In this document: positions 47,985 to 64,000 of the stretch, in pieces
Numbering within the stretch: position 1 is the stretch's first letter
Layout: each line of letters opens with the position of its first letter
NCBI GenBank assembly: GCA_046052125.1
Contig: JBJOMY010000007.1
Coordinates: 16,448-80,447 of the forward strand
Length of the DNA stretch: 64,000 nt
Direction: 5' to 3'
DNA from: Cyanobacteriota bacterium
GTDB taxonomy: Bacteria > Cyanobacteriota > Cyanobacteriia > PCC-6307 > Cyanobiaceae
Notes under the pieces: generated by a model
Told to the model about the DNA's origin: nothing
Seen by the model: only the letters and a program-made list of their open reading frames with translations
Database searches by the model: none
Made by a program: the position numbers and the translations under genes

Positions 47985-48037
47985 CAGTGAAAGCCTGCGA
48001 AGCCGGCGAGGATGGCATTCTCACGCCCTGCCGCCCG

Positions 48038-49171
48038 ATGCGCTGGCTCAGCTCCGTTCGCCTGCCAGCTATCGACGGCCTGTGGCGGATCGGCGTGGAT
48101 GGAGAGGAGCGCATCACTGCGGTGCACCCCTTGCCCCCCGGCAGCAGCTCCGCCGGTGAGGATTGGAACTGCGACTGGCTCAGTCCGATGGGGGTGGACC
48201 TGCAGATCAACGGCGGTCTTGGGCTGGCCTTCCCCGAGCTGAGCTCCAGCGATCTGCCCAACCTGCTGGAGTTACTGGAGCTGCTGTGGCGCGATGGCGT
48301 GGAGGCGATCGCCCCCACCCTGGTGACCTGCGGCGTAGCGGAACTGCGCCAGGCACTGGGGGTGCTGCGCGAGGCGAGGGCGCTACACCAGCCGGGGCGC
48401 TGCCAGCTACTGGGGGCCCATCTGGAGGGGCCCTTCCTGGCAGAGGCGCGGCGGGGGGCCCATCCGCGCCAGCACCTGGCGGCACCGAGCCTGGAGGCGC
48501 TCAACAGCCGCATCGGCGGCTTCGAGCAGGAGATCAGCCTGGTGACCCTGGCCCCTGAACTCGATGGTGCCGATGCCGTGATCGAGGCCTTGCTGCAGCT
48601 GGGCATCCAGGTGAGCCTTGGCCACAGCGAAGCCAATGAAGCCCAGGCCAGCGCAGCCTTTGAAAGCGGCGTGGGGATGATCACTCACGCCTTCAACGCC
48701 ATGGCCGGGCTGCACCACCGGGCCCCCGGGCCCATCGCCGCGGCCGCCCTACGAGGCGATGTGGCCCTGGGGCTGATCGCCGACGGCGTGCATGTGGCGC
48801 CGTCGATGGCGGTGCTGTTGCAGCGGTTGATGCCCAATCAGGTGGTGCTGGTGAGCGATGCCCTCGCCCCCTATGGCCTGGCCGATGGCGTGCACCGCTG
48901 GGATGAACGGGCGCTGATCGTGGAGAAGGGCAGCTGCCGGCTGGAGGACGGCACCCTGGCCGGGGTGACCCTGCCTCTGCTCGAGGCCGTGCGGCGCCTG
49001 GCCAGCTGGAGCGGCAAAGCAGGCCAGGCCATTGCGGCAGCCACGCTGCTGCCGCGACGCGTACTGGGCGAGCAGCGCGGGAGTCAGGAACTGCTCTTGG
49101 GCCGACCGCTGGCCCACTGCCTGCGCTGGAGCGGCCCGGCTCAGGATCTGCGCTGGCAACGGGCGGCCTGA
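48038..49171 (+). CDS. nagA: N-acetylglucosamine-6-phosphate deacetylase
   Basis: DLQING, PTLVT, GAHLEGPF, RGAH, TLAPE, GHS, THAFNAM, IADGVHV, VSDA, LAG. Confidence 0.9.
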   Translation: MRWLSSVRLPAIDGLWRIGVDGEERITAVHPLPPGSSSAGEDWNCDWLSPMGVDLQINGGLGLAFPELSSSDLPNLLELLELLWRDGVEAIAPTLVTCGVAELRQALGVLREARALHQPGRCQLLGAHLEGPFLAEARRGAHPRQHLAAPSLEALNSRIGGFEQEISLVTLAPELDGADAVIEALLQLGIQVSLGHSEANEAQASAAFESGVGMITHAFNAMAGLHHRAPGPIAAAALRGDVALGLIADGVHVAPSMAVLLQRLMPNQVVLVSDALAPYGLADGVHRWDERALIVEKGSCRLEDGTLAGVTLPLLEAVRRLASWSGKAGQAIAAATLLPRRVLGEQRGSQELLLGRPLAHCLRWSGPAQDLRWQRAA

Positions 49172-49213
49172 ATAGGATCCGCGCTTCTCTCTCCACGCCC
49201 CAGGCCCGAGCCG

Positions 49214-49939
49214 ATGCCCGCCGAGCAGCTTCTCAACAGCACCGAGGCCCAGAAAGCCGCCGAGAAGCAGGAGGTGAAGGGCTACTTCGAAACCACAGGC
49301 TTCGATCGCTGGAACCGCATCTACAGCGATTCCGACGACGTGAACAAGGTGCAGCGCAATATCCGCATCGGCCACCAAAAAACGGTGGACAACGTGCTTG
49401 CCTGGCTGCAGGAGCAAGGCAACCTGGCCGGCCGCAGCTTCTGCGATGCCGGCTGCGGCGTGGGCAGCCTCACCCTGCCCCTGGCCCAGCTCGGAGCTGG
49501 CTCGATCGCTGCCTCCGACCTCTCCGCCGCGATGGTGCAGGAGGCCGAGCGGCGGGCGAACGAGGCCGGCGTGCAGAAGGGCCAAATCAGCTTCCTGGCC
49601 TCCGATCTGGAGAGCCTCAGCGGCCGCTTCAACACCGTGGTTTGCCTGGACGTGTTCATTCACTACCCCCAGCAGCCAGCCGAGGAGATGGTGCGGCACC
49701 TGGCCTCGATGGCCGAACAGCATCTGATCGTGAGCTTCGCCCCCTACACGCCGCTGTTGGCGCTGCTCAAAGGCATTGGCCAGCTCTTCCCGGGCCCCAG
49801 CAAAACCACCCGCGCTTACACCCTGAAGGAGGCAGGCATCGTGAAGGCGGCCGAGGAAGCGGGCTTCGTGCTCAAGCGCCGCAGCCTCAACAAGGCTCCC
49901 TTCTATTTCTCTCGCTTGCTGGCGTTCGAAAAGGCCTGA
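49214..49939 (+). CDS. chlM: Mg-protoporphyrin IX methyltransferase
   Basis: VKGYFETTGFDRWNRIY, CDAGCGVG, CLDVFIHYP, SFAPYT, FYFSRL. Confidence 0.95.
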   Translation: MPAEQLLNSTEAQKAAEKQEVKGYFETTGFDRWNRIYSDSDDVNKVQRNIRIGHQKTVDNVLAWLQEQGNLAGRSFCDAGCGVGSLTLPLAQLGAGSIAASDLSAAMVQEAERRANEAGVQKGQISFLASDLESLSGRFNTVVCLDVFIHYPQQPAEEMVRHLASMAEQHLIVSFAPYTPLLALLKGIGQLFPGPSKTTRAYTLKEAGIVKAAEEAGFVLKRRSLNKAPFYFSRLLAFEKA

Positions 49940-49943
49940 AGCA

Positions 49944-50708
49944 GTGGAGCCCTCCCAGCTGCTGATTCCGGCGCTGCTGGGAGCCGGAGCCATCGCCTCC
50001 GGCCTTGCTCGCCGTCATCAGGTCCGCCAATTGAGCCACCTGCTGGATGCCCGCAGCACCAGCGTGGCCGAGCTGCTGGATCTGCAGCGCACCGTGGCCG
50101 AGCAGATGGGCGCCGGCTCCTTCAGCGAGCGGGTGAAGCTCTCGGGAGAGATCGTGTGCAACGAGCCGCTCACGGCCCCATGGAGCGGTGAGCCGTGCAT
50201 TGCCTTCAGGCAGAGCACCACAGCCCTGCTGGAGGTGAGGGAGGAACGCACCAGCAGCGACAAGGAAGGCAACACGACAACCGACGTGTACTGGGAACGC
50301 CGGGAGGACACCATCAGCACCCTCGAGCGCCGCTGCAGCTTTGAACTACGTCAGGGTCAGCAGAGCCTGAGGCTGGATCCTGAGGGCGCGGAACTTGAGC
50401 TTGAACCGGTGTTCAGCGAGATGAGCCCCGCCAGCAACCCAGACACCTTCAACACGCGCCAGTTGGGCATCCGCCGCGAGGAAGCGGTGCTCCGCCCCAC
50501 GGGCATGGCCTTTGTGGTGGCCGAGTGCAGCGATGCCAGCGGCACCCTCACCCTGCAGGCCCCCAGCGAGCAGGGGATGTTCGTGGTGCGTCGCGGCAGT
50601 GAAGCTGAATTCAGTCGCAACATCCGACGCTGGCGACGGGTCTGGACTGTGAGCACCTGGGTGTTGACGCTTGCCGCAGCGCTAAGCGGGCTGCTGATCG
50701 CGCTGTAA
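49944..50708 (+). CDS. GIDE-domain membrane protein (MUL1/SP1-like, no RING)
   Basis: N- and C-terminal TM helices around a beta-rich domain with VKLSG, PLTAPWSGEPC and REEAVL motifs. Confidence 0.6.
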   Translation: MEPSQLLIPALLGAGAIASGLARRHQVRQLSHLLDARSTSVAELLDLQRTVAEQMGAGSFSERVKLSGEIVCNEPLTAPWSGEPCIAFRQSTTALLEVREERTSSDKEGNTTTDVYWERREDTISTLERRCSFELRQGQQSLRLDPEGAELELEPVFSEMSPASNPDTFNTRQLGIRREEAVLRPTGMAFVVAECSDASGTLTLQAPSEQGMFVVRRGSEAEFSRNIRRWRRVWTVSTWVLTLAAALSGLLIAL

Positions 50709-50752
50709 CGACGCAAGCTGGAAGAGCAGTGATCTCCTGAACCAGGTCGCCC

Positions 50753-51058
50753 ATGTTCAAACAACTGCTTGCGTTGATGGGCTGCATCGGCCTGGCCCTG
50801 GTGCCAACAACCGCTCAAGCCTGGGAGCCTGGGGATGACTGGCAAGACAGCCAGTGCCGCACCACCCGCGATGAAGGGGGAAACAGCGTGGAGGTGTGCC
50901 AAGCCATCTATGACGGCAACAAGGTGTATCTCGGTGCTTATTGGAATGACGGCTCCGAAGTGGTGGGTCCCTGCTCCACCGAAGACCCTGAGCCGATCGA
51001 GTACAAGGGCATGACGAAGTCCGAAGCCCGCACCTGGGTGAAGACCTACTGCCCCTGA
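50753..51058 (+). CDS. Small secreted protein with four Cys in the mature chain
   Basis: Signal peptide ending AQA; acidic mature domain. Confidence 0.75.
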   Translation: MFKQLLALMGCIGLALVPTTAQAWEPGDDWQDSQCRTTRDEGGNSVEVCQAIYDGNKVYLGAYWNDGSEVVGPCSTEDPEPIEYKGMTKSEARTWVKTYCP

Positions 51059-52062
51059 ACGGTGAGCGCCTCTGGCAGCGCCGCTTCGAGTTGCAGAACA
51101 CCCCCAACTGGCGGCTGGAGTTCCAGGCGATGGGCATGCAGCCGATAGCCCCCTGCTCCCGGGAGTGACCCCGAATCAGCGAGGCCTCCGGCGCGATAGA
51201 GCGGATCACCGAGCAACGGTGCACCGATGGCGGCCGTGTGGATGCGGATCTGATGGGGGCGGCCTGTGGCAATCGCCACCTCCACCAAACAAGCCTCCGC
51301 GCGGCGTTCCAGCAGGGTGATGGTGCTGAGGGAGGGCAGGGCGGCAGGGTCGCCGGGTTCTGCTGCGCACCAGATCTGACCGAGTAAGGGGTGCGCCCGT
51401 CTGCCGATCGCAGCCGTGATCGCTCGTGTCTCCCCCAGCCGCCACTCGGATGGGAGCGGCTGGCAAAGCGCGCGGTAAAGCTTGCGACAGGCGCGATGGG
51501 GAGCAGCATCAGCCGCTCCACTGGTGCTCTCCCGCAACTGAGCGCTGAGCCAGGCGCGGGTTTGGCTGCGGCGGGCGCACACCAGCAAACCGGAGGTGAA
51601 GCGTCCGAGCCGATGCACCGGCCGGGGCCGACCAGCCATGGCGCAGATCCGCCCAGCCGTCACCCAGCCCTGCAGCTGGGCCAAGAGCGTGTGGCTGAGA
51701 AACCCTCCGGCCGGCAGCACTGGAAGGCCGCTGGGCTTGTTGAGCACCAGCAGATCGCCATCGTCAAACACGATCGAGCGCTCGCTGAGCACCGGCACGG
51801 CCGCCTCCTGCCAGGGGGGCCGATGCCACAGCAAACGATCACCGGCTGCGAGCGCTGCATCGGCCCGGAGCTGCTGGCCGTTGCACCAGATCTCGCCGGC
51901 GGCGAGCCGCTCGATCCAAGTGGACTGATCGGAATGGGCGTAACGCCCGGCATAAAAACCAGCGATGCTGGCGGCCGGTTCGCTCACGCGATCGCGATAG
52001 GCATGGCCGGCATTCAGCGCAGCCGGCAGCCAGGACTCGCCAGCAACCTGCTCGCTACTCAA
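51046..52062 (-). CDS. RluA-family pseudouridine synthase
   Basis: LNKPSGLP, VHRLGRFTSG, KLYRAL, TGRPHQIRIH, LLGDPLY, LHAH. Confidence 0.88.
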   Translation of the reverse strand: MSSEQVAGESWLPAALNAGHAYRDRVSEPAASIAGFYAGRYAHSDQSTWIERLAAGEIWCNGQQLRADAALAAGDRLLWHRPPWQEAAVPVLSERSIVFDDGDLLVLNKPSGLPVLPAGGFLSHTLLAQLQGWVTAGRICAMAGRPRPVHRLGRFTSGLLVCARRSQTRAWLSAQLRESTSGAADAAPHRACRKLYRALCQPLPSEWRLGETRAITAAIGRRAHPLLGQIWCAAEPGDPAALPSLSTITLLERRAEACLVEVAIATGRPHQIRIHTAAIGAPLLGDPLYRAGGLADSGSLPGAGGYRLHAHRLELQPPVGGVLQLEAALPEALTVQGQ

Positions 52063-52789
52063 CCAGCCCGTTCTCGAGGGCGTAGCGCACCAATTCGGTG
52101 CGGCTGGCGGTGCCGGTTTTGGTGAACAGGCGGCTCACGTATTTCTCCACGTTGCGAATGGAGGTTTCCAGGCGGCGGGCAATCTCCTTGTTCATCATTC
52201 CCTCCGCCACCAGCTGGAGCACCGAAGCCTCACGCGGGGTGAACTCATGTTTGACGCCTCCGGGAGCCTTCTTGCTACCGCCGGTGGCCAGCAGGGAGCG
52301 GATCTCGGTGATCTGCTTGGCCATCTGGCCGATATCGGCATCGGCGAAACGGGCGGCCTCCTGCAGCAAGCGCTCCTGGCGGCGCACCACGTTGTGCACC
52401 CGGGCCACCAGCTCATCGGGATCGAAGGGCTTGGGGATGTAGTCGTCGCAGCCGGCCTGGAAGCCCTCGATGCGATCGGCCGTCATCCCCTTGGCGGTGA
52501 GGAAAATCACCGGGGTGCCGCCGAGGCGCTCGTCGTCGCGCAGTTTGCGCAGCAGCCCATAGCCATCGAGGCGGGGCATCATCACGTCGCTGATCACCAC
52601 ATCGGGCAGCAGCTCCTGGGCCTTGGTCCAGCCGTCTTCACCGTCGACGGCGGTGGTCACCTGGAAGCCCTCGTCTTCCAGGTAGGCCTGCACGGCGGTG
52701 CGCAGGCCGGGTTCGTCATCCACCAACAGCAGCCGCGCCGGGGGCTGGGGCACCGCTTCCGGGGCCTGGGTTTCAGGTTCGAGGTTCAT
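52055..52789 (-). CDS. ycf29: NarL/LuxR-family response regulator Ycf29 (Rre1)
   Basis: LLLVDDEPGLR, ISDVMMP, FLTAKGMTADR, FTPREASVL, IRNVEKYVSRL. Confidence 0.88.
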   Translation of the reverse strand: MNLEPETQAPEAVPQPPARLLLVDDEPGLRTAVQAYLEDEGFQVTTAVDGEDGWTKAQELLPDVVISDVMMPRLDGYGLLRKLRDDERLGGTPVIFLTAKGMTADRIEGFQAGCDDYIPKPFDPDELVARVHNVVRRQERLLQEAARFADADIGQMAKQITEIRSLLATGGSKKAPGGVKHEFTPREASVLQLVAEGMMNKEIARRLETSIRNVEKYVSRLFTKTGTASRTELVRYALENGLVE

Positions 52790-52798
52790 GGGCGCAAT

Positions 52799-53323
52799 CT
52801 ATCGAGGGTTGCCAGGAAGCACCTGCTGCTGCTCCCGCAGCAAGCCCGAGTAGCCAAGCTTCCGGGCCAGGGCCTGGAGAGTGGCGGGGTCCTTGCCGGC
52901 CTGCTCCGGGACACAGGCGGCCCACCAGATCTGGTGATCCAGGCGGTTGGCGTCGTTGATCGACCCACCAGGGTTGAGCTCTTTGATGAGGAGGCTGCTG
53001 CCCTTGCGCGTCAGCCGCATCGGCGCATCCGGGCTGCAACGCAGGGTGTCGATCGCCAGCTGCACCCCCGTCGGGGATTCCACCCACACCACGATCGTGC
53101 GGGCCGTTGGATCGCGCGGATCGGGCTTCACACCATGCACGCCGATGGCGAAGCCGCCTTCCATGGTGCTCCACTCGCGCAGCAGCACCAGATCAGCGGG
53201 CCGCTGCTCGTTGGACGCCCGATGCGGGTTGCTGGGGTCGGGGGCACCGAGGGAGGTTTGAGCAGCGGCGGGGAGCGTAAGCATGGCCACAGCCAGCAGC
53301 AGCTTCAGTGATCGAGCAGCCAT
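52799..53323 (-). CDS. Exported hypothetical protein
   Basis: Signal peptide MAARSLKLLLAVAMLTLPAAA; two Cys (LRCS, AACV). Confidence 0.65.
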   Translation of the reverse strand: MAARSLKLLLAVAMLTLPAAAQTSLGAPDPSNPHRASNEQRPADLVLLREWSTMEGGFAIGVHGVKPDPRDPTARTIVVWVESPTGVQLAIDTLRCSPDAPMRLTRKGSSLLIKELNPGGSINDANRLDHQIWWAACVPEQAGKDPATLQALARKLGYSGLLREQQQVLPGNPR

Positions 53324-53354
53324 AACGCTCAGCGGTGGCAGGGAGCTTGCCAGC

Positions 53355-54509
53355 ATGGTGTCCATGCCGTCCCCTGTCATCTACCTCGACCATCAAGCCA
53401 CCAGTCCCTGCAGAGCGGAGGTTCTGGCGGCGATGGAACCGTGGTGGCGGGAGTCTGGGGCCAATCCCAGCAGCCGGCTCCACCGACCGGGGCTTCAGGC
53501 TGCCGCCGCGATCGAGCTAGCCCGCGAACAGATCGCCCAGGCCCTGGGGGGCTCCGGAGGCCGGTTGGTGTTCACCAGCGGTGCTACGGAAGCCAACAAT
53601 CTCGCTCTCAAAGGCCTGGCGGAGGCTGAACTGGAATCAGGCGGTGGGCGACGCCATCTGATCACCGTCTGCACCGAGCATCGATCCGTGCTCGATCCCC
53701 TGCGCCACCTCAGCCGCCATGGCTTCGAGCTGACGGAACTTCCGGTGCACGCCGATGGGCTGGTGGATCTGGAGGAGCTGGAGGCCGCTCTGCGAGCCGA
53801 CACGCTGCTGGTGAGCGTGATGGCTGCCAACAACGAGATCGGGGTCATCCAGCCGATCGCGGCCATGGCCAACCTCTGCAGGCGCCGTGCTGTGGCGCTG
53901 CACTGCGATGCCGCCCAGGCTCTGGGCCACATCCCTCTGGATGCGGCTGAGCTCGGCGTGCAGCTGCTCAGCCTCAGCGCCCACAAGCTCGGGGGCCCGA
54001 TGGGCATCGGCGGTATTTGGATCGCGGATGGCATCCGCATCGCACCGCAACTGCATGGCGGCAGCCATGAGGGGGGATCGCGGGCCGGCACCCCAGCACT
54101 CCCTCTGATTGTTGGCTTCCAGAAAGCCCTGGAGCTAGCCCTTCAGGAGCAACCCGAGCGGTTACACCAGCTCACAGTCCTGCGTGATGCGTTGTGGCAT
54201 GGCATCCGCGACCTGGGCGGCATCGTTTGCAATGGGGCCGGCACACCACGGCTGGCCCACAACCTCAACATCTGGGTGGACGGCGTGGATGGCGTCGAAC
54301 TGCACAGGCAACTGCGCCGGCATCTCGCCGTGAGCAGTGGATCCGCGTGCAGCAACGGTGAACCCTCCCACGTGCTGCAGGCGCTGGGGCTGAGCCGTCA
54401 GCAGGCGGCTGCCGCTGTTCGCTTCAGCCTCGGCCCCGAGAGCACGGCTGCGGATGTTGAGCGCGCCATCGACGTGTTCTGCACAACCGTGCAGGCCCTA
54501 CGGCGTTAA
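53355..54509 (+). CDS. iscS: Cysteine desulfurase (IscS/NifS group I)
   Basis: IYLDHQATSP, FTSGATEANN, ANNEIG, HCDAAQ, SAHK, RAGT, VSSGSACS. Confidence 0.92.
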   Translation: MVSMPSPVIYLDHQATSPCRAEVLAAMEPWWRESGANPSSRLHRPGLQAAAAIELAREQIAQALGGSGGRLVFTSGATEANNLALKGLAEAELESGGGRRHLITVCTEHRSVLDPLRHLSRHGFELTELPVHADGLVDLEELEAALRADTLLVSVMAANNEIGVIQPIAAMANLCRRRAVALHCDAAQALGHIPLDAAELGVQLLSLSAHKLGGPMGIGGIWIADGIRIAPQLHGGSHEGGSRAGTPALPLIVGFQKALELALQEQPERLHQLTVLRDALWHGIRDLGGIVCNGAGTPRLAHNLNIWVDGVDGVELHRQLRRHLAVSSGSACSNGEPSHVLQALGLSRQQAAAAVRFSLGPESTAADVERAIDVFCTTVQALRR

Positions 54510-55327
54510 GCCGTTTTGCGCGCTGACGCACGGGGCTTGCGCTCCCGGGGCTTGGACGATTTAGAGGCCTTGGTGGATGGCGTCTCCGTTGCCTGAACGA
54601 GACTGACGGGAGGCACGGGCGACTGCACCTGAGCGATCCGCGACAGCACCCGCTGCTGGGCTGTTTCAGAGAACAGGAATGTCCCGACGTGACCAAGAGC
54701 AAAGCGCTTGGAAAGGAACACTTTGCCGCCGAGATCACGCCAACGATTGCAGAACATCCAGTCTTCACTCATGTAAACGTCATGCCCTGGCACCAGGCCG
54801 CAATCGAAGTAGGCGTAGAGGAAGGGATTCAATGAAGGATCCAGGCCGCAGTCATCGGTGTATTTAAGATGGGGATTGGCCTCCGCCAGCCGCACAAACA
54901 CCTCCCTCCGAATCAGCAGAAACCCTGTACCCAATCGCAACACCTCCACCTTGCCATCATCTTGGAAACCACCAGGGCAGGGATTGATGACGTAATCAAC
55001 AGGCAGGCTTTTCTTGGGGTAACCACCACCAATAACATCCACATTCTCCTGCAACAGAGTCAGCACATCAGACGGCTCAAAGAGAATGTCCGAGTCGATG
55101 AACATCAGATGCGTGGCCAGCGGGTTCGCCATCGCCCGGGCCACCAGAGCATTGCGACCGCGGGGAATCAGGCTCTCATTCACCAAGGTGTCAAGAGTCC
55201 AGTCGACCCCCCAGTCGCGGGCTTGAACCGTGAACCGAACAAAACTGGTGAACGTGGCTTCAGAAATCTGCCCCCCGTAACAAGGAATCAGAAAATGAAC
55301 GTGGGGAACAGCAGCGCCATAAACCAT
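54506..55327 (-). CDS. GT-A-fold (GT2-like) glycosyltransferase
   Basis: FLIPCYGG, ESLIPRGRN, HLMFIDSD (DxD), GGGYPKK, LGTGFLLIRREVF, SEDWMFC, LGHVG; basic low-complexity tail. Confidence 0.7.
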   Translation of the reverse strand: MVYGAAVPHVHFLIPCYGGQISEATFTSFVRFTVQARDWGVDWTLDTLVNESLIPRGRNALVARAMANPLATHLMFIDSDILFEPSDVLTLLQENVDVIGGGYPKKSLPVDYVINPCPGGFQDDGKVEVLRLGTGFLLIRREVFVRLAEANPHLKYTDDCGLDPSLNPFLYAYFDCGLVPGHDVYMSEDWMFCNRWRDLGGKVFLSKRFALGHVGTFLFSETAQQRVLSRIAQVQSPVPPVSLVQATETPSTKASKSSKPRERKPRASARKTA

Positions 55328-55431
55328 TTTGAGTTACAGATGCGCTCAGTGCGGTCCCGGGAATCTAGGCGAAAAACCCCAAAAAACTGATAGGGTCGCC
55401 GACCGAAACAGCCCTTCACGCAGCAGTCAGC

Positions 55432-56220
55432 ATGACCTTTGCGCGCCGCTTTCGTCGCCGCCTGTCGGCTCCTCTGCTGCTCCTGATCACGTCGGCCTCG
55501 TCAGTGCCGTTGGCCATGCCGGCTCACGCTCTCGACGATGCAGCCCTGGCACGGAAACTCGCCTCGATTCCCGTGCTCCTGCCCACGGACACGGCAGGCA
55601 AACCGGTGCTGATCGATCGTCCCGTGGGGGGCAAGAGCACGCCGGTTCTGTTCGGCGCTTTCTCACCCGAAGCCGCTGAGGCGCTCCAACAACAGATCAT
55701 TCAGCCGCAGCTCAAGGCGAAGGCCGCCAGCATCCAATTCAGGGCCACCAACCTGGTGGATTTCGAAGCCGTGCTGCTGGATTCACGTAAACAGCAACCT
55801 GCTGTTGTGCGCGCTTACATCCCCGATCCCCTGCAGGAGTCAGCTGTGGTGCCGATGCTGATCGAACAGGGGGCCAAACCCGAGGAGGCGCGCCAACTTG
55901 CACGCAGCCAACCGGTGATCTTCTGCCCGGACCCGTTGGTTCAGGTCAACGTCAAACGCGACAAACTCAACACCACCACAGTGCCCTGCGGCCTGGATTT
56001 CCGCGAGATGGCGCTGTTTGTGCTCGGACCTCGCCTCAAAGATCGCCGCCCCGGCCTGGTGGGCTTACCGCTGGAGCGGATGGTGACGCTGATGCGCACG
56101 CTAAAGGGAAGCGAAGGCGACCATCTCACCATCACCCCATCGCCATCGATGCAGGCGCTGCTGAACCGGCTGGCCAGCAGCAACACCACTCCCGCATCGC
56201 CAGCAACCAAGAAGCCCTAG
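55432..56220 (+). CDS. Tic22-like periplasmic chaperone
   Basis: Signal peptide ending AHA, then LDDAALARKLASIPVLLPTDTAGKPVL, resembling the Tic22 start (KL..vPVF.itd..G.Pl); second half-repeat QPVIF; size fits Tic22. Confidence 0.7.
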   Translation: MTFARRFRRRLSAPLLLLITSASSVPLAMPAHALDDAALARKLASIPVLLPTDTAGKPVLIDRPVGGKSTPVLFGAFSPEAAEALQQQIIQPQLKAKAASIQFRATNLVDFEAVLLDSRKQQPAVVRAYIPDPLQESAVVPMLIEQGAKPEEARQLARSQPVIFCPDPLVQVNVKRDKLNTTTVPCGLDFREMALFVLGPRLKDRRPGLVGLPLERMVTLMRTLKGSEGDHLTITPSPSMQALLNRLASSNTTPASPATKKP

Positions 56221-56224
56221 GGCA

Positions 56225-56551
56225 TCAGGCAGCGATTGGCTCCTCAACCTGGGTCAGGGGCTCAACGCCCTGGACGTCAAGCTCCTGCTTGATCAGCGTC
56301 ACATAAGTTTGTTGAGCCGCTTGAAGGTTGCGCAAACGAAACTGCAGCTCGTTCTGCTCCTGACTGCAGCGCAGGAGGTCGTTGATCATCGCCGTCACGG
56401 TTTCGGGAAGGCTGTCGATGGCGTAGGTCACACCGTCGATGTTGAACAACGGACGCTCTGCCGCACTGTCCAGCACCTCAAGAGTTCTCGGATCGGGGCT
56501 CTCACCGGTCACATCGGTCTCGAGCTCGGCCTCGAAATGGTCGTCGGACAT
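56225..56551 (-). CDS. DUF6447-like small acidic protein
   Basis: FNIDGVTYAIDSLPE followed by a coiled coil ending LQAAQQTYVTLIKQEL. Confidence 0.6.
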   Translation of the reverse strand: MSDDHFEAELETDVTGESPDPRTLEVLDSAAERPLFNIDGVTYAIDSLPETVTAMINDLLRCSQEQNELQFRLRNLQAAQQTYVTLIKQELDVQGVEPLTQVEEPIAA

Positions 56552-56707
56552 ACCAGGGACCTCCCCAACAGTGCGGTGAACTTAAGCCCATTTCCCAGCG
56601 GCGCCGCACAAGCCGCAGCGGGGGGGGCATCAGAAAGGCGAACAAATTCCGAAGAGCCCTTTCTTTTTCATACGGCAATGCAAAAATGGCGCACCTTTCC
56701 GTCGTAA

Positions 56708-59700
56708 GTGCGCCAAAACCGCGCTGCTCTGGGTCTCCTGCCTGCCTTCCTGCTCCTGAGCGGGACGGCAACCTCCGTGCTGGCACAGACCCAGAACATC
56801 GGCACCAGCAGCGGCACTTACACCTCTCCGAGCTCTCAGCCCTTCGTCTACGGCCAGGGCAACAACGGCAGCACACCCAGCTACAACCCCTGGGGTAATG
56901 GCCGCACCGGTGGCACCGGCGGCAGCGGCCCGACGATCACCTACAGCCTGATCAACGGCTCCTCCATCGGGACAACAGCCGGAGCCAGCTCCGCCGGCGG
57001 ACGCGGCGGCAACGGCGGCACCAGTGCCGGTGATGGTGGTGATGGCGGATCCGGTGGGTCCCCGGGGAACGTCACGGTCACCATTACCTCCGGCACGAAC
57101 ATCAGCGCCAGCTCGCTGGTGAATGGCGGCTATACGAGCGTTCTTGGAGCCATTGCCAGCGTCAGCGCTGGTAATGGCGGCGATGGCGCCAATGCCGGAC
57201 TGGTGAGTGGTGGTTCCGGCGGTGTCGGAGGTAGCTCCGCCGGCCAGACGGCCCAGCTGAACACCCAGGGCGGCAGCTCCATCAGCGCCACCAGCACCTC
57301 GGGCTCCTACGGCGCCATCGGCCTGCTGTCGCAAGCCACCGGGGGGATCGGTGGCGATGGCGGCAGCGGCACCTTTGGTGGCGGTGGCAGCGGTGGCAGC
57401 GGCGGTTTCTCCGGCACCGCCTCGGTCAACAATGCCGGCAACATCACCGTTACCTCCAGTGGCGGCGCTGGTGGCGCCGGCATCCTGGTTCAGTCGGTGG
57501 GCGGCCAGGGCGGCTCCTCTGGCAGCGGCGGCATCATCTCCTTCGGCAACCTCGGGGGCACCGGCGGTAATGCCGGCACGGTGAACGTGGTGAACTCCGG
57601 AAACATCACCGTGAGCGGTAACGGGGTGTTTGGCATCAACGCCCAAAGCGTGGGCGGCGGCGGCGGTGCTGTGGCTCCCAGCATTTCCCTAGCCAACCTT
57701 GGTTCCTCCGAGGGCGGCGGCGGCGGTGCCGGCGGCAGTGCCACCGTAACCATGAGCGGCGGCAGCATCCGCACCAATGGCTCCAATGCCATAGGCATCA
57801 TTGTTCAGTCGATTGGCGGCGGCGGCGGCGCCATCGGCAGCAGTGCCGCTGCGATCAATCTGGGCGGCTCATCCTCGGGTGGCTTCGGCGGCAATGCCGG
57901 TAGCGCCACGCTGAACTTCAGCGGCGGAAGCGTCACCACTGGTAGCGCCACCGTTGGCACGCTCTCCAGCGGCATCCTGGTGCAGAGCATCGGCGGCGGC
58001 GGCGGCAGTGCCGGCACGAGCTATGGCCTGATCTCTTTTGGCGCATCCGGTGGCAACGGAGGCAACGGAGGTACTGCCACTGCTTATCTCAGCAGCGGCA
58101 GTGTCACCACCTACCAGGATTTCGCCCCCGGTATCACCGTGCAGAGCATCGGTGGCGGTGGTGGCAATGGCGGCAATGCTTCATCAGCCGGCGTGGGCGT
58201 ATCGGTGGCCGTGGGCGGCACCGGTGCCGCTGGCGGCGTCGGCGGCACGGCTCAGGTCTTTGCTCCATCGCTGAACAGTGTTCCGATCACCATCAACACC
58301 TCCGGCAACAGTTCGCCAGGCCTGTTGGTGCAAAGCATTGGTGGCGGTGGCGGCAATGGCGGCAGCTCCACCAGCGCCTCCGTTGGCATTGCCAGTGCCT
58401 CAATCGCCGTGGGCGGCAGCGGCGGCAGCGGTGCAACCGCCGGCAAAGTCACAGTTGGAACGTCGAGCGTCCCTCTCTATATCAATGTCACCACCCAAGG
58501 AGCTAGCTCGCCCGGCATCAGCCTGATGTCGGTTGGCGGGGGCGGCGGCAGCGGCGGTGCCAGCGGGTCGCTGGCCGGCGGCGCCGCGGGCAGCTTCAGC
58601 CTCGGCATCGGTGGCACCGGCGGTACCGGCGCCAACTCTGGCGTCGTCTACGCCAACATCGCCGGCAACATCACAACCAGCGGCTTCCAGTCACCCGGCA
58701 TCTATGCCGCCAGCATCGGTGGCGGTGGAGGCAGCGGCGGCGCCAGCATGAGCCTGAGTGCCGGGGGGGTTGTCGCCGCCTCCCCATCGGTTGGAGGCAG
58801 CGGCGGTGCGGCTGGTAACGCCAACACCGTCAGCGTCACCTACAGCGGCAACATCGTCACCGCCGGCGATTACTCACCCGGTGTGAGCATCAACAGCATC
58901 GGTGGCGGTGGTGGCAGTGGCGGTAGTTCGCTATCGGCCTCCGCCAGCGGGGGCGTGAGCATGTCAGTTGCCGTTGGAGGCCAAGGGAGCGGTGGTGGCT
59001 ATGGCTCCAGCGCGACCGGTTCGATCAGCGGCAACATCACCACAACGGGGGCTTACTCACCGGGCATTTTCATCCAGAGCATCGGTGGCGGTGGCGGCAG
59101 CGGTGGTTCGGCCGTCACAGGCAGCATGAGCATCAACCCGGTGGCATCCGGTGCGATTGGGGTTGGCCTCGGCGGCAGTGCCGGTGGTGGTGGCAACGGC
59201 GGGGCCGTGACCCTCACCTACAACGGCGGATCGATCAGCACTACTGGCGACTTCTCCCTCGGCATCCTCGCTCAGAGTGTGGGTGGTGGTGGTGGCCAAG
59301 GCGGCATCAGCACCAGTGGTTCAGTGGCGGTCTCCGGGGGAGCCTCCGTGAGTGGTGCCGTAGCCATGGGTGGCAGCGGCGGCAATGGTGGCAATGCCTC
59401 CAGCGTGTCGGTCACCGCGTCCGGAAACGTGCTCTCCACCTCGGGCAACGTGGCCCCGGGCATCCTGGCCCAGAGCATCGGCGGTGGTGGTGGCAGCGGT
59501 GGCTCCAGCCTCACCCTCCAGGGCTCGGCCGGAGGGGCCGCAGGCGTCAACCTCGGGGGCTCCACCGGCGGCACGGGCGGCGCCGGTGGCAATGCCTCCT
59601 CAGTCAGTCTCACCTCCTCGTTCACCACGATCCTCACCACGGGCAATTACTCCCCAGGACTCCTGGCCCAGAGCATTGGTGGTGGTGGTGGTGGTGGTGG

Positions 59701-62700
59701 CTCTTCAGCCTCCCTCAGCGCGTCAGGGGGCGGCACGGCGGGCGTGAATGCAGTGGCCACTGTGGGTGGCGCCGGCAGTTCCGGCGGTTCCGCTGGCAGT
59801 GTCACGCTCAACTCGTCGAGCAACATCTCGACCAGCGGCTACAACTCCTACGGAATCTTTGCCCAGAGCGTGGGCGGCGGTGGCGGCAGCGGCGGCAGCG
59901 CTGCGAGCGTGAGTCTCTCGGGTGGTGGCAGCGCTGCCATTTCCGCAGGGGCCACGATCGGTGGTTCCGGGGCCGGCGGGGGTTCAGCCGGAACCGTCAC
60001 GGTGACCTCCACCGGCTCCAGCATCCAAACGACAGGCAACTCAGCAACTGGGATCCTCGCCCAGAGCATTGGCGGTGGTGGTGGCAATGGCGGCAGCGCC
60101 AGCACGATCAGCGCCACCGCCTCAGGCGGTGCCTCGGTGAACGCCAACCTCACCATGGGAGGCCAGGGAGGCGGCGGGGGCAATGCCGGTCAGGTGTCGG
60201 TCACCAGCTACAGCTCGATCACCACGACAGGCAATTCCTCCTACGGCATCTACGCGCAATCGGTGGGCGGTGGTGGTGGCAGCGGCGGCATGAGCACCAA
60301 CATGCAGGCCGGCATTGCCGCCAGTGGTGCCGTGAACGTGGGGGTCACCATGGGAGGGGCCGGCGGCGGCGGCGGCAGCGGCGGTGCTGTGCAGGTGAAC
60401 TCCTACGGAAATCTGATCAGCACAAGTGGTTACAACGCCGCTGGCATCTACGCCCAATCACTGGGCGGCGGCGGCGGTAGCGGCGGCCAGTCGAACAGTT
60501 TCAGCCTGGCGGCCAGCGGCTCCGGCAGCGTGAACGCCAATGCCCAGATCGGCGGCAGTGGAGGTGGTGGCGGTAGCGGTAGCACCGTGACCATCTACAG
60601 CACCAGTTCGATCATCACGAGCGGAAATTCCGCCTACGGAATCTTCGCCCAGAGCGTGGGCGGCGGTGGTGGCAACGGGGGTGGAACCCTCAGCGGCCAG
60701 CTGGCTGCTGGCGCGGGCCCCACGGTGAATGCCGGCGTCAGCCTCGGAGGCAGTGGCGGTGGTGGCGGCAGCGGCGGCGCTGTGAGCGTGACTTCGCTCG
60801 GGAACAGCATCACCACAACGGGTGACCAGGCAACCGGCATCCTGGCCCAGAGCATCGGTGGTGGTGGTGGCGCTGGCGGCAGCACCATCAGTCTTCAGGG
60901 CGCCGGTGGCACAGCACCGGCCGTGAACGCGGGAGTGAGCATCGGTGGCAGCGGTGGCAGTGGCGGTGCCGCCGGTTCGGTGACGGTGATGAGCGAAAGC
61001 ATCATCAACACCTCCGGCAATTCGGCGTACGGCATCTTTGCCCAAAGTGTGGGTGGCGGCGGCGGCAGCGGCGGCAGCACCATCAGCGGCCAGATCGCTC
61101 TCTCCACCGGTGCAACCGCCAGCGTGGGTGTGAACCTCGGTGGAGCCGGCGGCTCCGGCAACACCGCAGGCAACGTGAGCGTGACCTCCAAGGGAGCCTC
61201 GATCACCACCCGCGGCAACAACGCAGCAGCCATCTACGCCCAAAGCATCGGCGGCGGTGGCGGCAGTGGCGGCCAAGCCTCAAGCTTCAGCCTCAGCGGC
61301 TCGACGGGTGGGCCATCCATCACCGCCAATGCCAACGTTGGCGGCAACGGTGGTAGTGGCGGTTCTGGCGGCAACGTCACGATCGTGAACAGCTCCACGA
61401 TCAGCACCGGCTCCGTCGTCGACGGTGTGGTCTATGGCGTTAACTCCTTCGGTTTGTTTGCCCAGAGCGTGGGAGGCTCCGGGGGATTCGGCGGCAGCAC
61501 CCTCACCGGACAGCTCAGCGCAAGCAACGCCTCCCCCAGTGTGAATGCCGGGGTGTCGATCGGGGGCTCCGGCGGCAGTGGCAATTCCGGCGGGTCGGTG
61601 AGCATCACCTCGACGGATGCCTCGATCACCACCCTCGGCGACTACGCCGCTGGCATCTTCGCCCAGTCGGTGGGTGGAGGAGGTGGCGCCGGCGGCAGCA
61701 CCCTCAGCATTCAGGGATCGGGCTCTTCCTCCGGCACCACCGTGAATGGTGGTGTGAGCTTGGGCGGTGCGGGCGGCAGCGGCAGCAACGGTGGCACGGT
61801 CACCGTGACCAGCAACTCCAACATCTCCACCGGTTACGACCTTGGCAATGGCGTTATCAGCGGCGCCTACGCCTACGGCATCTTTGCCCAAAGCATCGGT
61901 GGCGGTGGTGGCAGCGGTGGGTCCACCAAGTCGTACACCGGAACGGTCTCCTCCTCAGGCCAACCCATCACCCTGGGCGCCTCCGTCGGTGGCAGTGGCG
62001 GCAGCGGCGGCAGCGCCTCAACGGTGACCGTCTACGCCAGCGGGAACATCACCACCCGGGGCTACGCCGCCACAGGCCTCTTGGCCCAGAGCATTGGCGG
62101 CGGCGGCGGCGCCGGCGGCTCCACCAGCTCCATGTCGCTCAACGCATCCCAAAGCGGCAGCAAGGTTCAGGGCAGCATCGACATCAGCATCGGCGGCAGC
62201 GGCGGCAGCGGCGGCAACGCCGGCAAGGTGGTGGTGCAGCCCTACCAGCAGGGACAGGCGCTCACCATCACCACGTTCGGCGACCAAGCCCATGGGCTCT
62301 ATGCCCAGAGCGTGGGTGGCGGTGGCGGCCAGGGTGGCAGCAGCCAGAACAGCTCCACCAACAAATCCGATTCGAAATACAGCTTTGGCGGCTCCGCCAC
62401 CGTGGGCGGCGGCGGCGGCCAGGGCGGCACCGGCAATGCGGTGCTGATCGGCACCAACCAGCGCAAGCCCCTGCTGGTCGAGATCGAAACCCAAGGTGAT
62501 AATGCCTACGGCCTGTTTGCCCAAAGTGTGGGCGGCGGCGGCGGCAGCGGCGGTAGCTCTTCCAGTGAAACCTCCGGTGGAGCCCTCTCCGCCAGCTTCA
62601 GCTTTGGCGGCAGTGGCGGCTATGGCGGCAGCGCCGGCAGTGTCAAGGTTTACGCCAGCGGCAACATCATCACCAGCGGCAACAACTCCGCTGGCCTCAC

Positions 62701-64000
62701 TGCTCAATCCATCGGCGGCGGCGGTGGTGCCGGCGGCAGCAGCACCAGCGTGAGCCAAGCCGACAGCTCCCAGTCGGCCAATGCCAGCTTCAACTTCGGT
62801 GCCAGCGCCAGTGTGGGCGGCAGCGGCGGTGGCGGCGGCAATGGCGGCCGGGTGGTCGTGAGCTATGCGGGCAACATCGCCACCTTCGGCGCCTTTGGAT
62901 CGCCGGGGATGCTGATCCAATCGGTGGGTGGCGGCGGTGGTGCGGGCGGCAGCTCCACCAGCAGCGCCAGCTCCGGATCCGGCAGCACCCTTGGGGCGTC
63001 GGTGTCGATGGCCTTCGGCGGCAGTGGTGGCAACGGTGGACGCGGCGGCAACGTCAGCTTCCTCAGCAACGGCAACCTCAACATCTCCACCGTTGGCGAG
63101 AACTCGCCAGGTGCCCTGATTCAGAGCATCGGTGGTGGTGGCGGAGCCGGTGGCGCTGTGAGCAGCGTGGCCACGACCACCGGCAATGCCAGTTTCAGCT
63201 TCGGGGGCTCTGCCAGCGTGGGCGGCTCGGGTGGTGGCGGTGGCAGCGGTGGCGCTGTTGTCTTCGGCAAGAACGCCAAAAAAGCGGTTCCGATCAGCAT
63301 CAGCACCGAGGGCATCAGCTCCCCAGGCCTGCTGGTTCAGAGCGTGGGCGGCGGCGGCGGCCAGGGTGGTCGTTCCCTCAGTAACGCCTCAGCCGGCAAC
63401 CTTTCGGTGTCGTTCGGGATGGGCGGCAGCGGCGGCAACGGTGGCAGTGGCGGCGCGGTCACCTTCAACGCCCTTGGCACCGTTCAAACCCTGGGTGAAC
63501 TGGCTCACGGCATCGTCGTGCAGTCGTTGGGCGGCGGTGGCGGTCAGGGCGGCTCCGTTGTGAGCGGTGCTTCGGCGGCGGCCGAGTCGGCCAATTCCTC
63601 CTTCTCCTTCGGGGCATCGGCCGGAGTTTCCGGAAGCGGCGGCGGTGGCGGCAGCGGCGGCACGGTGCAGGCCTTGATGTCGGGACAAATCACCACCCAA
63701 GGTGATGGAGCCATCGGCTTCTTCGCTCAGTCCGTTGGTGGTGGTGGTGGTTCCGCCGGGTCAGTCACCAGCACAACCTCGACCGGTGGTAACTCCTCAA
63801 TCGCCGGTTCGGCCACCTTCTCCATGGGTGCCAGTGGCGGTGATGGTGGGGCCGGCGGGAATGTGTCGCTGATCGTTCCCTCTCAACTCACCGTCATCAC
63901 CGGAAACCTCACTGCAGGTACCGGCACTGGCGCTCACGGCATCCTCCTCCAGTCCATCGGTGGCGGTGGCGGTCAAGGCGGTTCCATCCTCTCCGGCAAC
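56708..64000 (+). CDS. Giant Gly/Ser-rich repetitive surface protein (autotransporter/adhesin-like passenger), 3' end outside window
   Basis: GTG 56708 gives MRQNRAALGLLPAFLLLSGTATSVLA/QTQ; same reading frame holds at 63962-64000; absent from the ORF track because there is no stop in the window; at least 2431 codons. Confidence 0.93.
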   Translation, partial: MRQNRAALGLLPAFLLLSGTATSVLAQTQNIGTSSGTYTSPSSQPFVYGQGNNGSTPSYNPWGNGRTGGTGGSGPTITYSLINGSSIGTTAGASSAGGRGGNGGTSAGDGGDGGSGGSPGNVTVTITSGTNISASSLVNGGYTSVLGAIASVSAGNGGDGANAGLVSGGSGGVGGSSAGQTAQLNTQGGSSISATSTSGSYGAIGLLSQATGGIGGDGGSGTFGGGGSGGSGGFSGTASVNNAGNITVTSSGGAGGAGILVQSVGGQGGSSGSGGIISFGNLGGTGGNAGTVNVVNSGNITVSGNGVFGINAQSVGGGGGAVAPSISLANLGSSEGGGGGAGGSATVTMSGGSIRTNGSNAIGIIVQSIGGGGGAIGSSAAAINLGGSSSGGFGGNAGSATLNFSGGSVTTGSATVGTLSSGILVQSIGGGGGSAGTSYGLISFGASGGNGGNGGTATAYLSSGSVTTYQDFAPGITVQSIGGGGGNGGNASSAGVGVSVAVGGTGAAGGVGGTAQVFAPSLNSVPITINTSGNSSPGLLVQSIGGGGGNGGSSTSASVGIASASIAVGGSGGSGATAGKVTVGTSSVPLYINVTTQGASSPGISLMSVGGGGGSGGASGSLAGGAAGSFSLGIGGTGGTGANSGVVYANIAGNITTSGFQSPGIYAASIGGGGGSGGASMSLSAGGVVAASPSVGGSGGAAGNANTVSVTYSGNIVTAGDYSPGVSINSIGGGGGSGGSSLSASASGGVSMSVAVGGQGSGGGYGSSATGSISGNITTTGAYSPGIFIQSIGGGGGSGGSAVTGSMSINPVASGAIGVGLGGSAGGGGNGGAVTLTYNGGSISTTGDFSLGILAQSVGGGGGQGGISTSGSVAVSGGASVSGAVAMGGSGGNGGNASSVSVTASGNVLSTSGNVAPGILAQSIGGGGGSGGSSLTLQGSAGGAAGVNLGGSTGGTGGAGGNASSVSLTSSFTTILTTGNYSPGLLAQSIGGGGGGGGSSASLSASGGGTAGVNAVATVGGAGSSGGSAGSVTLNSSSNISTSGYNSYGIFAQSVGGGGGSGGSAASVSLSGGGSAAISAGATIGGSGAGGGSAGTVTVTSTGSSIQTTGNSATGILAQSIGGGGGNGGSASTISATASGGASVNANLTMGGQGGGGGNAGQVSVTSYSSITTTGNSSYGIYAQSVGGGGGSGGMSTNMQAGIAASGAVNVGVTMGGAGGGGGSGGAVQVNSYGNLISTSGYNAAGIYAQSLGGGGGSGGQSNSFSLAASGSGSVNANAQIGGSGGGGGSGSTVTIYSTSSIITSGNSAYGIFAQSVGGGGGNGGGTLSGQLAAGAGPTVNAGVSLGGSGGGGGSGGAVSVTSLGNSITTTGDQATGILAQSIGGGGGAGGSTISLQGAGGTAPAVNAGVSIGGSGGSGGAAGSVTVMSESIINTSGNSAYGIFAQSVGGGGGSGGSTISGQIALSTGATASVGVNLGGAGGSGNTAGNVSVTSKGASITTRGNNAAAIYAQSIGGGGGSGGQASSFSLSGSTGGPSITANANVGGNGGSGGSGGNVTIVNSSTISTGSVVDGVVYGVNSFGLFAQSVGGSGGFGGSTLTGQLSASNASPSVNAGVSIGGSGGSGNSGGSVSITSTDASITTLGDYAAGIFAQSVGGGGGAGGSTLSIQGSGSSSGTTVNGGVSLGGAGGSGSNGGTVTVTSNSNISTGYDLGNGVISGAYAYGIFAQSIGGGGGSGGSTKSYTGTVSSSGQPITLGASVGGSGGSGGSASTVTVYASGNITTRGYAATGLLAQSIGGGGGAGGSTSSMSLNASQSGSKVQGSIDISIGGSGGSGGNAGKVVVQPYQQGQALTITTFGDQAHGLYAQSVGGGGGQGGSSQNSSTNKSDSKYSFGGSATVGGGGGQGGTGNAVLIGTNQRKPLLVEIETQGDNAYGLFAQSVGGGGGSGGSSSSETSGGALSASFSFGGSGGYGGSAGSVKVYASGNIITSGNNSAGLTAQSIGGGGGAGGSSTSVSQADSSQSANASFNFGASASVGGSGGGGGNGGRVVVSYAGNIATFGAFGSPGMLIQSVGGGGGAGGSSTSSASSGSGSTLGASVSMAFGGSGGNGGRGGNVSFLSNGNLNISTVGENSPGALIQSIGGGGGAGGAVSSVATTTGNASFSFGGSASVGGSGGGGGSGGAVVFGKNAKKAVPISISTEGISSPGLLVQSVGGGGGQGGRSLSNASAGNLSVSFGMGGSGGNGGSGGAVTFNALGTVQTLGELAHGIVVQSLGGGGGQGGSVVSGASAAAESANSSFSFGASAGVSGSGGGGGSGGTVQALMSGQITTQGDGAIGFFAQSVGGGGGSAGSVTSTTSTGGNSSIAGSATFSMGASGGDGGAGGNVSLIVPSQLTVITGNLTAGTGTGAHGILLQSIGGGGGQGGSILSGN
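57491..63980 (+). repeat. About 34 tandem coding repeats of roughly 51-75 aa with core GIxAQS(I/V)GGGGGxGG
   Basis: Motif starts read at 57491, 57644, 58142, 58331, 59075, 59273, 59471, 59669, 59864, 60062, 60257, 60455, 60650, 60848, 61043, 61241, 61463, 62087, 62522, 63122, 63950 and others. Confidence 0.92.

Follow-up and report, generated by a model that had tools for sequence, protein, structure and literature searches.

A picocyanobacterial island encoding a giant predicted type V surface protein beside a Tic22-family paralog and a putative glycosyltransferase

In the usual view, type V secretion requires no more than its substrate, a barrel of the Omp85 family, and chaperones of the housekeeping type. 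The present study concerns a locus in which a giant protein of predicted type V is encoded beside a Tic22-family paralog, a putative glycosyltransferase (GT), and a small protein resembling the family DUF6447. It is located at the end of a stretch of 64,000 nucleotides (nt) from a freshwater picocyanobacterium, a Cyanobacteriota bacterium of the family Cyanobiaceae (GenBank assembly GCA_046052125.1, contig JBJOMY010000007.1, positions 16,448 to 80,447). “The window” denotes this whole stretch, which corresponds to G000:C7:16448-80447, with G000 being the source genome; contig C7 stops at the window end.

Tic22 is described as a holdase, with Omp85/POTRA as its interaction partner (PMC12895209), and the housekeeping tic22 gene has been reported to be essential. 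According to a review of TPS systems (PMC5422565), glycosylation by adjacent cytoplasmic transferases occurs with HMW1C and with type Va passengers, DegP is a holding chaperone for FHA, and cdiI, cdiO, cdiC, and hmw1c are given as extra partners of two-partner secretion (TPS) systems, with a dedicated periplasmic chaperone not being among the partners given there. A literature search, with subscription-only papers outside its range, yielded nothing that connects type V loci with Tic22 paralogs or with DUF6447, no papers on DUF6447, and none on giant autotransporter proteins of Synechococcus. The marine Synechococcus WH8102 possesses SwmB, a giant repetitive cell-surface protein encoded in accessory DNA, and we know of no description of this protein as an autotransporter.

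The components of the locus in the window belong to known families, and their combination is new with respect to the literature searched. The whole may be explained, with moderate probability, as the island of a giant type V protein that carries along its own Tic22 chaperone, a GT, and a small partner, the functional steps being taken from gene context and fold. An earlier interpretation made from the DNA letters, in the following the sequence-only reading, had proposed a locus that couples export and glycosylation. Its genomic predictions held, namely, the folds, the separate tic22 gene, the beta-domain, and the co-occurrence of the genes, whereas chaperoning and glycosylation are suggested by gene context and fold.

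The insertion and its giant gene

In five of five genomes of the same genus without the four genes, rluD, a gene for a response regulator, p193, iscS, a gene for a protein of 269 amino acids (aa), rsmH, and ndhH are contiguous. In G000, iscS is located on C7, and the 269-aa gene, rsmH, and ndhH follow the stop of the autotransporter gene on contig C2. Because iscS and the 269-aa gene are contiguous in all five relatives, C7 most likely joins C2, and because this junction is intact there, the genes for the GT, the Tic22 paralog, the small protein, and the autotransporter represent a single insertion. The predicted genes thus form an island of at least 26.7 kb with exactly four genes between iscS and the conserved 269-aa gene. 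That the core genes end at iscS, as previously supposed, was borne out, since the next gene in the five relatives is the one following the giant open reading frame (ORF) on C2.

The giant ORF starts with an N-terminal signal peptide seen by eye (...SVLA/QTQ), and its part in the window contains 30% Gly, 18% Ser, and 8% Thr. The motif QS[IVLM]GG[GS]GG occurs there in 30 copies, spaced mostly by about 65 to 75 aa, within a passenger repeat unit of about 66 aa bearing QS[IV]GGGGG. In the whole 2.64-Mb genome of 10 contigs, this motif was found nowhere but at the two facing contig ends, with 30 copies on C7 and 67 copies at the beginning of C2, and the passenger consists of roughly 97 Gly/Ser-rich repeats. 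The passenger (2,430 aa) matched no Pfam or NCBIfam family. On C2, the giant gene is continued by an ORF that is open at its 5' end (C2:2-17209, 5,735 aa), the last 1,500 aa of which (translation of C2:12707-17206) match the Pfam family Autotransporter, PF03797, with an E value of 2.1e-35; its C terminus reads ...FRWRF. Both pieces combined comprise 8,165 aa with 24.8% Gly, 15.0% Ser, and 7.9% Thr. The protein had been called “very Ser/Thr-rich,” but it is Gly/Ser-rich and not simply rich in Ser and Thr.

Because of the C-terminal Autotransporter beta-domain, the giant protein can be assigned to type V, as the search with this hidden Markov model (HMM) was expected to show. Signal peptide, passenger, and barrel are probably on one polypeptide, the gene for which is split over two contigs by its repeats; a join of the pieces is supported by the motif, by synteny, and by a closed relative: in a closed genome of a second genus, g37, one uninterrupted frame of 10,689 aa contains the beta-domain, with a start resembling the N terminus about 32 kb upstream. 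As judged from the translated sequences, the giant ORF and the C2 ORF together would encode an autotransporter of the classical type Va with a length of at least about 8,000 aa. A direct overlap of C7 and C2 was considered and rejected. The final approximately 100 nt of C7 are repeated identically at C2:456-556, and the 200 nt preceding them are only about 83% identical, which indicates a repeat. Since the flanking DNA is only 83% identical, the break between both contigs is attributed to collapsed repeats, an uncertain number of which may be absent from the assembly.

The positions of all features are given in Table 1. As noted in the sequence-only reading, the four accessory genes past iscS are present as two divergent pairs, separated by spacers that are A/T-richer than the window with its 65.7% GC. 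The GC contents of ORF1 (56.3%) and ORF3 (58.7%) are also lower. ORF2 and ORF3 are convergent with a gap of 4 nt, and ORF3 is divergent from the giant gene. A simple scan of positions 54300-56900 revealed no sigma-70-like or terminator-like sites. For the iscS-like gene, models of the NCBIfam IscS subfamily were the top matches, yet under their cut-offs.

Table 1. Features at the window end and the related TPS locus on another contig of the source genome
Feature	Position	Strand	Size	Remarks
iscS-like cysteine desulfurase gene	53283-54509	+		Last core gene, left border of the insertion; Pfam Aminotran_5, E = 2.3e-68
ORF1, predicted cytoplasmic glycosyltransferase of GT-A fold	54506-55327	-	273 aa	Fold match and DxD motif
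Divergent spacer ORF1/ORF2	55328-55431		104 nt	54.8% GC
ORF2, predicted Tic22-family paralog	55432-56220	+	262 aa	Pfam, profile, and fold
ORF3, small acidic DUF6447-like protein	56225-56551	-	108 aa	Divergent family match
Divergent spacer ORF3/giant gene	56552-56707		156 nt	56.4% GC
Giant predicted autotransporter, 5' part	56708-64000 (window end)	+	2431 aa	No stop; continues on C2
Two-partner-secretion locus	G000 C1:556102-604578			L021, L022, L024, L025

The arrangement recurs in other genomes. Three loci (L042, L043, and L044) are fully syntenic in the order iscS, GT, Tic22 paralog, small gene, and autotransporter, with L042 being about 82% identical in its DNA across window positions 48004-63999. 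At L045, with 63-75% aa identity, the four genes are still linked on another flank, where the GT gene abuts rsmH, and a Nif11-like gene, a PhyH-like gene, and an ORF of 651 aa precede the autotransporter gene. In g37, the distance from the GT gene to giant-autotransporter repeats and to an ORF3 homolog is no more than about 10 kb in all eight genomes with the GT, and in five of the eight, a Tic22 paralog is also found within 10 kb of the GT gene. The other three each possess exactly one Tic22 paralog, located elsewhere, where it diverges from the 5' end of a different giant ORF resembling an autotransporter. The expected co-occurrence of the four genes was therefore found at several orthologous loci and, in rearranged order, in a second genus. 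The trio situated between the small gene and the autotransporter gene in L045 and in the g37 clusters is also found in the source genome at C5:1-7139, where a Nif11-like gene, a gene for a PhyH-like dioxygenase, and an approximately 645-aa gene are adjacent to another large ORF (973+ aa), which is cut off by the start of the contig.

Pieces of all four genes (for the giant gene, of its 5' end) were represented at 95-100% identity in contigs from four RNA libraries of four studies. Because DNA carry-over is possible, and presence only is indicated without strand, level, or operon structure, these contigs are a weak hint of transcription.

Tic22 paralogs and DUF6447-like proteins beside type V genes

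ORF2 reached 23.9 bits with the Pfam family Tic22 (PF04278; cut-off, 23), with the N-terminal half only. A family profile of 17 sequences matched Tic22 of Anabaena (4EV1) over its full length with an E value of 2.7e-6, and comparison of the family with the housekeeping Tic22 of the same genome by hhalign gave a probability of 92%. With the AlphaFold2 (AF2) model (pLDDT, 84.8), Foldseek retrieved four chains only at E<=0.001, all of them Tic22 (4ev1, 8xks_I, 4e6z, and 8xqw_Q), the best being 4ev1 with an E value of 7.5e-13. Judged by this model, ORF2 is a true Tic22-fold protein; the assignment as a Tic22 paralog made previously, along with the HMM search proposed for it, is confirmed by the Pfam score above the cut-off and by the predicted fold. 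A Sec-type signal peptide is visible by eye at the N terminus (...AMPAHA/LDD). In the ORF2 clade, C165 and C186 are invariant on neighboring strands, with no Cys at the aligned positions of 4EV1, and in the modeled protein, both residues may form a disulfide in the periplasm.

A separate housekeeping tic22 gene, as looked for, is present on contig C3. It has the top Pfam score (37 bits) and is flanked by core genes, its neighbors resembling ppsA and ilvB as judged by their translations. A long branch of the tree separates the housekeeping Tic22 proteins from the paralogs, with an unresolved backbone. Weak family-level matches in two genomes (G069 and G087) were rejected as paralogs because they were housekeeping tic22 genes beside ppsA and ilvB.

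ORF2 and ORF3 have relatives at a second type V locus of the source genome, a TPS locus on contig C1. On the minus strand, the order is TpsA-2, a Tic22 paralog, TpsA-1, a DUF6447-like gene, TpsB, and a second DUF6447-like gene; beyond the latter, an ORF of 134 aa and another Tic22 paralog follow on the plus strand. TpsA-2 has 9,619 aa, and TpsA-1 has 4,666 aa with a TPS domain (E = 3.8e-24). TpsB matches ShlB (E = 1.3e-20) and POTRA_2 (E = 5.6e-21). The Tic22 paralog between the two tpsA genes starts 5 nt past the stop of TpsA-2 on the same strand. Thus, three of three non-housekeeping Tic22 paralogs and three of three ORF3-family genes of the source genome are located within type V loci. The type Vb arrangement of C1 is kept in the metagenome loci L048-L052. 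The TpsA giants carry YDG, DUF5649, MBG_2, and PATR repeats, and the locus also contains a DUF4177-like gene. A further large ORF of the source genome, with 1,610 aa at C9:27082-31914, appeared in the list of ORFs of >=1,500 aa.

ORF3 scored 13.1 bits with DUF6447 (PF20045; cut-off, 27), and its paralog on C1 scored 19.6 bits. Of the 23 members of the ORF3 family, 20 match DUF6447 at E<=0.1, with 5.9e-7 as the best value, and one homolog has a precomputed PF20045 match. By its own score, ORF3 stays below the cut-off, and it is read from these comparisons as a probable divergent branch of the DUF6447 family. The conserved core comprises about 60 aa, and a signal peptide is not apparent by eye. 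The family profile matched strongly only the own genome among 301 genomes across the phylum, with four weak matches at E values of 2.6e-4 to 9.4e-4. Since the strong match is limited to the own genome, ORF3 looks narrowly distributed in this sample.

To survey the Tic22 paralogs, the profile was applied at E<=1e-12 to 401 genomes of one family, with six candidates per genome being scored, so that the resulting counts are lower bounds: at least 21 copies were present in at least 18 of the 401 genomes. Eighteen copies were examined for their context (those of G497, G512, and G537 were not part of this set). Of these, 14 are next to giant or type V genes or in a cluster with them, and two are positioned at contig ends, which leaves their context undecided (G070 and G134). 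In additional scans, the paralog profile found one locus among genome contigs and 10 in metagenomes. Assignment to type V failed for the giant ORF beside the G070 paralog and likewise for those of G127 and G510.

Five paralog-positive genomes without the GT were compared with five paralog-negative genomes of the same genus. TpsB was found in four of the former and an Autotransporter domain in three, each genome having at least one of the two; none of the latter contained TpsB, and three contained Autotransporter domains in open frames of only 583-1077 aa. Both sets are small and composed of related genomes, so that this difference is suggestive and not statistical.

Two observations concern the neighbors of the paralogs. 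In the closed genome G510 (C1:843000-893000; L064, L072, and L073), two consecutive giant ORFs of >=6,340 and >10,400 aa are located directly upstream of a Tic22 paralog; one of them has a DUF5649 repeat, and no TPS or Autotransporter domain occurred in the parts scanned. A DUF4177-like gene adjoins the Tic22 paralog at four loci (L036:10314-10940, L037:3922-4281, L064:8770-9264, and G000 C1:556102-556563). The paralogs concerned are the C1a copy of G000 and, in G139, G127, and G510, those of “clade D,” and the gene may encode a further conserved partner.

In the proposed mechanism, Sec would export the giant pre-protein, and the dedicated Tic22 paralog may act as a periplasmic holdase that keeps the long, aggregation-prone chain unfolded. 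It would then deliver its substrate to an Omp85-family machine, BamA in the case of the autotransporter and TpsB in the case of TpsA. These holding and delivery steps are suggested by the analogy to housekeeping Tic22 and Omp85. The DUF6447-like protein would be a cytoplasmic partner, perhaps in holding or targeting before export, or it may regulate the divergent giant gene. The product may form a fiber or coat on the cell surface, with possible functions in adhesion, aggregation, or avoidance of grazers or phages.

Alternatively, the Tic22 paralog and the DUF6447-like protein may control or contain the giant protein, the small protein by control of its transcription and the paralog by periplasmic quality control or prevention of aggregation when secretion stalls. 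The divergent position of ORF3 next to the giant gene and the lack of an apparent signal peptide would agree with this, as would two members of the ORF3 family named “predicted transcriptional regulator” by one source and the three of eight g37 loci that keep the small gene at the start of the autotransporter gene with the paralog outside the 20 kb retrieved around the GT gene. However, ORF3 matches no DNA-binding family, and an aggregation-preventing holdase would differ little in its mechanism from the dedicated chaperone proposed above and is hard to separate from it by sequence. Control or containment as the function of this pair is considered unlikely.

The glycosyltransferase and the weighing of the coupling

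ORF1 matched no Pfam family above the cut-off, the best being Anp1 with an E value of 0.037, and no heptosyltransferase or GT41-type family in Pfam and NCBIfam scans at E<=0.1. The HMM search for GT2 proposed in the sequence-only reading was negative, as ORF1 had no match to Glycos_transf_2 above the cut-off; one homolog matched Glyco_tranf_2_3 under the cut-off (E = 0.009), and NCBI labels some homologs “glycosyltransferase family 2 protein.” The AF2 model with a mean pLDDT of 79.9 yielded 289 Foldseek matches at E<=0.001. The listed top matches through rank 43 are all GT-A glycosyltransferases, with the glycosyltransferase domain of LH3 (E = 1.3e-8), STIV A197, COLGALT1, Mnn9, and ppGalNAc-T at the top. 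The ORF1 profile also matched STIV A197 (2c0n; E = 0.0024), and in 25 sequences, D78 and D80 of the DxD motif are invariant. A basic disordered tail is present, and no signal peptide is visible by eye. In agreement with the earlier GT-A assignment, for which the predicted fold and the invariant DxD motif speak, ORF1 is by its modeled structure a glycosyltransferase of GT-A fold, with a predicted location in the cytoplasm. The source genome contains no paralog of ORF1.

The GT profile matched 13 of the 401 genomes, 11 of them strongly (E = 1.6e-136 to 2.4e-130), namely, G000, G149, and G658 of the own genus and eight genomes of g37. Within 10 kb of the GT gene in the 10 strongly matching genomes other than the source genome, giant-autotransporter repeats were found in nine, an ORF3 homolog in nine, and a Tic22 paralog in six. 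In the cytoplasm before export, the GT-A enzyme would probably glycosylate the Ser/Thr-rich passenger repeats, which is the weakest link of the proposed mechanism; by analogy to other type V systems, glycosylation of the passenger by ORF1 is plausible. Genes for oxygenases of the 2-oxoglutarate-Fe(II) [2OG-Fe(II)]/PhyH type were observed near the GT gene at L034:7660-8358 (G149), at L045:3990-4856, and in the g37 clusters. Together with the best fold matches of the GT, to the glycosyltransferase domains of the collagen lysyl hydroxylase LH3 and of COLGALT1, they raise the idea that a hydroxylation may precede the glycosylation.

Several findings weigh against the proposed coupling. With respect to the GT, ORF1 matches PHROG 1574, a family of unassigned function, with an E value of 9.7e-33, and homologs with about 37% identity occur in phages, with 65 records, of which Synechococcus phages account for 43. 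The phage homologs, designated “hypothetical protein,” were observed in T4-like Synechococcus phages (ACG-2014f group) and in Sinorhizobium, Caulobacter, and Pelagibacter phages. Since the ORF1 family comprises 1,217 homologs and includes these phage copies and the PHROG 1574 match, the GT is not intrinsically an autotransporter enzyme. In G149, which belongs to the same genus, the GT gene is adjacent to a second GT gene, and the genome contains neither an Autotransporter match nor a Tic22 paralog; this and the cyanophage homologs weaken the link between GT and autotransporter. The g37 clusters also carry a second GT, a UDP-glucose dehydrogenase, and an epimerase gene near the GT gene, and these genes fit both polysaccharide synthesis and protein glycosylation. 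With respect to the paralog, two of the 18 examined copies (G049 and G139) had no giant gene in the 14-20 kb retrieved, and the giant ORFs next to clade-D paralogs in G127 and G510 showed no TPS or Autotransporter domain in the scanned parts. Because ordinary autotransporters occur in relatives without the paralog, the paralog is not a general requirement of type V secretion. ORF3 cannot simply be the partner of the periplasmic paralog because it has no apparent signal peptide. Finally, the related genomes in these counts are kin and not independent of each other.

The phage homologs may indicate that ORF1 is a phage-derived modifier of a receptor or surface glycan, enzymatically unrelated to the autotransporter and linked to it by a shared use in avoidance of phages or grazers. 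The PHROG match and the Synechococcus phage records would fit this, as would the lower GC content of ORF1 and the viral origin of STIV A197, the nearest solved relative detectable by sequence. This origin of the linkage is nevertheless highly improbable: 10 of the 11 genomes with a strong GT match have a giant autotransporter at a distance of no more than about 10 kb from the GT gene, in two genera and with differing gene orders, and the top folds include the protein-glycosylating GT-A enzymes LH3, COLGALT1, and ppGalNAc-T.

The findings could also be explained by a bundle of surface genes that arrived together without direct coupling. The GT would then be used for polysaccharide or lipopolysaccharide, and the Tic22 paralog would be an extra general chaperone for outer membrane proteins, duplicated because of the envelope load. 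The GT of G149 beside a second GT in the absence of an autotransporter, the UDP-glucose dehydrogenase and epimerase genes in g37, the GT homologs in phages, and the two paralog copies away from giant genes agree with such a bundle. Against it stand the pairing of the paralog with the small gene in three independent type V contexts of one genome, the linkage of the set to giant autotransporters despite the rearrangement in the second genus, the position of one paralog between two tpsA genes only 5 nt past a stop codon, and the absence of paralogs from relatives without giant type V genes. Co-arrival as the sole connection is thus possible but doubtful, and the giant type V island with accessory proteins of its own is preferred.

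Significance and comparison with described systems

As a generalization beyond the window, it is tentatively proposed that picocyanobacteria evolved substrate-dedicated Tic22-family chaperones beside their giant type V genes, which would deliver the substrates to BamA and TpsB. The DUF6447-like protein and the GT-A enzyme would make this a type V accessory set of four components that is new to the literature searched. If this is true, a periplasmic chaperone of the Tic22 family encoded in the locus of its substrate would be a new class of accessory protein, serving giants of both type Va and type Vb, and would help to account for the passage of proteins with 8,000-10,000 residues through the periplasm. 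A partnership of Tic22 with TpsB or Omp85 that moves whole polypeptides in free-living cyanobacteria would be a living analogue of Tic22-Toc75 in chloroplast import, which bears on how a cooperation arose in plastids between Tic22 and Toc75, an Omp85 relative that conducts polypeptides. The paralogs also offer a testable, non-essential model for the poorly understood cyanobacterial Tic22 family, and DUF6447 gains a first genomic context. Among the surface proteins of the abundant picocyanobacteria of fresh and marine waters, those encoded by these islands are the largest, with candidate roles in aggregation, grazing, and phage interactions.

Of the described systems, Tic22 and Omp85 of Anabaena sp. 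PCC 7120 and the chloroplast Tic22-Toc75 POTRA pair are the closest to the proposed chaperone. ORF2 shares the fold of Anabaena Tic22 (Foldseek TM of 0.62/0.71 to 4EV1) and is, like Tic22, periplasmic by implication of its signal peptide. It differs from Anabaena Tic22 in being divergent, with a Pfam score barely at the cut-off and a long branch, and in its own invariant Cys pair. In contrast to a housekeeping Tic22, ORF2 is accessory and island-borne (at least 18 of the 401 family genomes) and encoded beside a giant type V substrate. The proteobacterial SurA, Skp, and DegP fulfill the same role as proposed here, the holding of an unfolded type V substrate for BamA or TpsB, but they are housekeeping proteins of unrelated folds that are unlinked to the genes of their substrates, whereas the candidate chaperone in the island is encoded in the locus of its substrate.

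AIDA-I/Aah, TibA/TibC, and HMW1/HMW1C resemble the locus in that the gene for a cytoplasmic glycosyltransferase adjoins that for a repeat-rich type V passenger. ORF1 differs from Aah, TibC, and HMW1C by its predicted GT-A fold with a DxD motif and by homologs that occur also without autotransporters and in phages; to our knowledge, neither the heptosyltransferases Aah and TibC nor HMW1C are GT-A enzymes. The TpsA/TpsB systems, such as FHA/FhaC, are matched by the C1 locus with its TpsB, containing ShlB and POTRA_2, and its TpsA with a TPS domain. Unlike these systems, the C1 locus adds two Tic22 paralogs and two DUF6447-like genes, and the locus in the window is predicted to be of type Va and not of type Vb.

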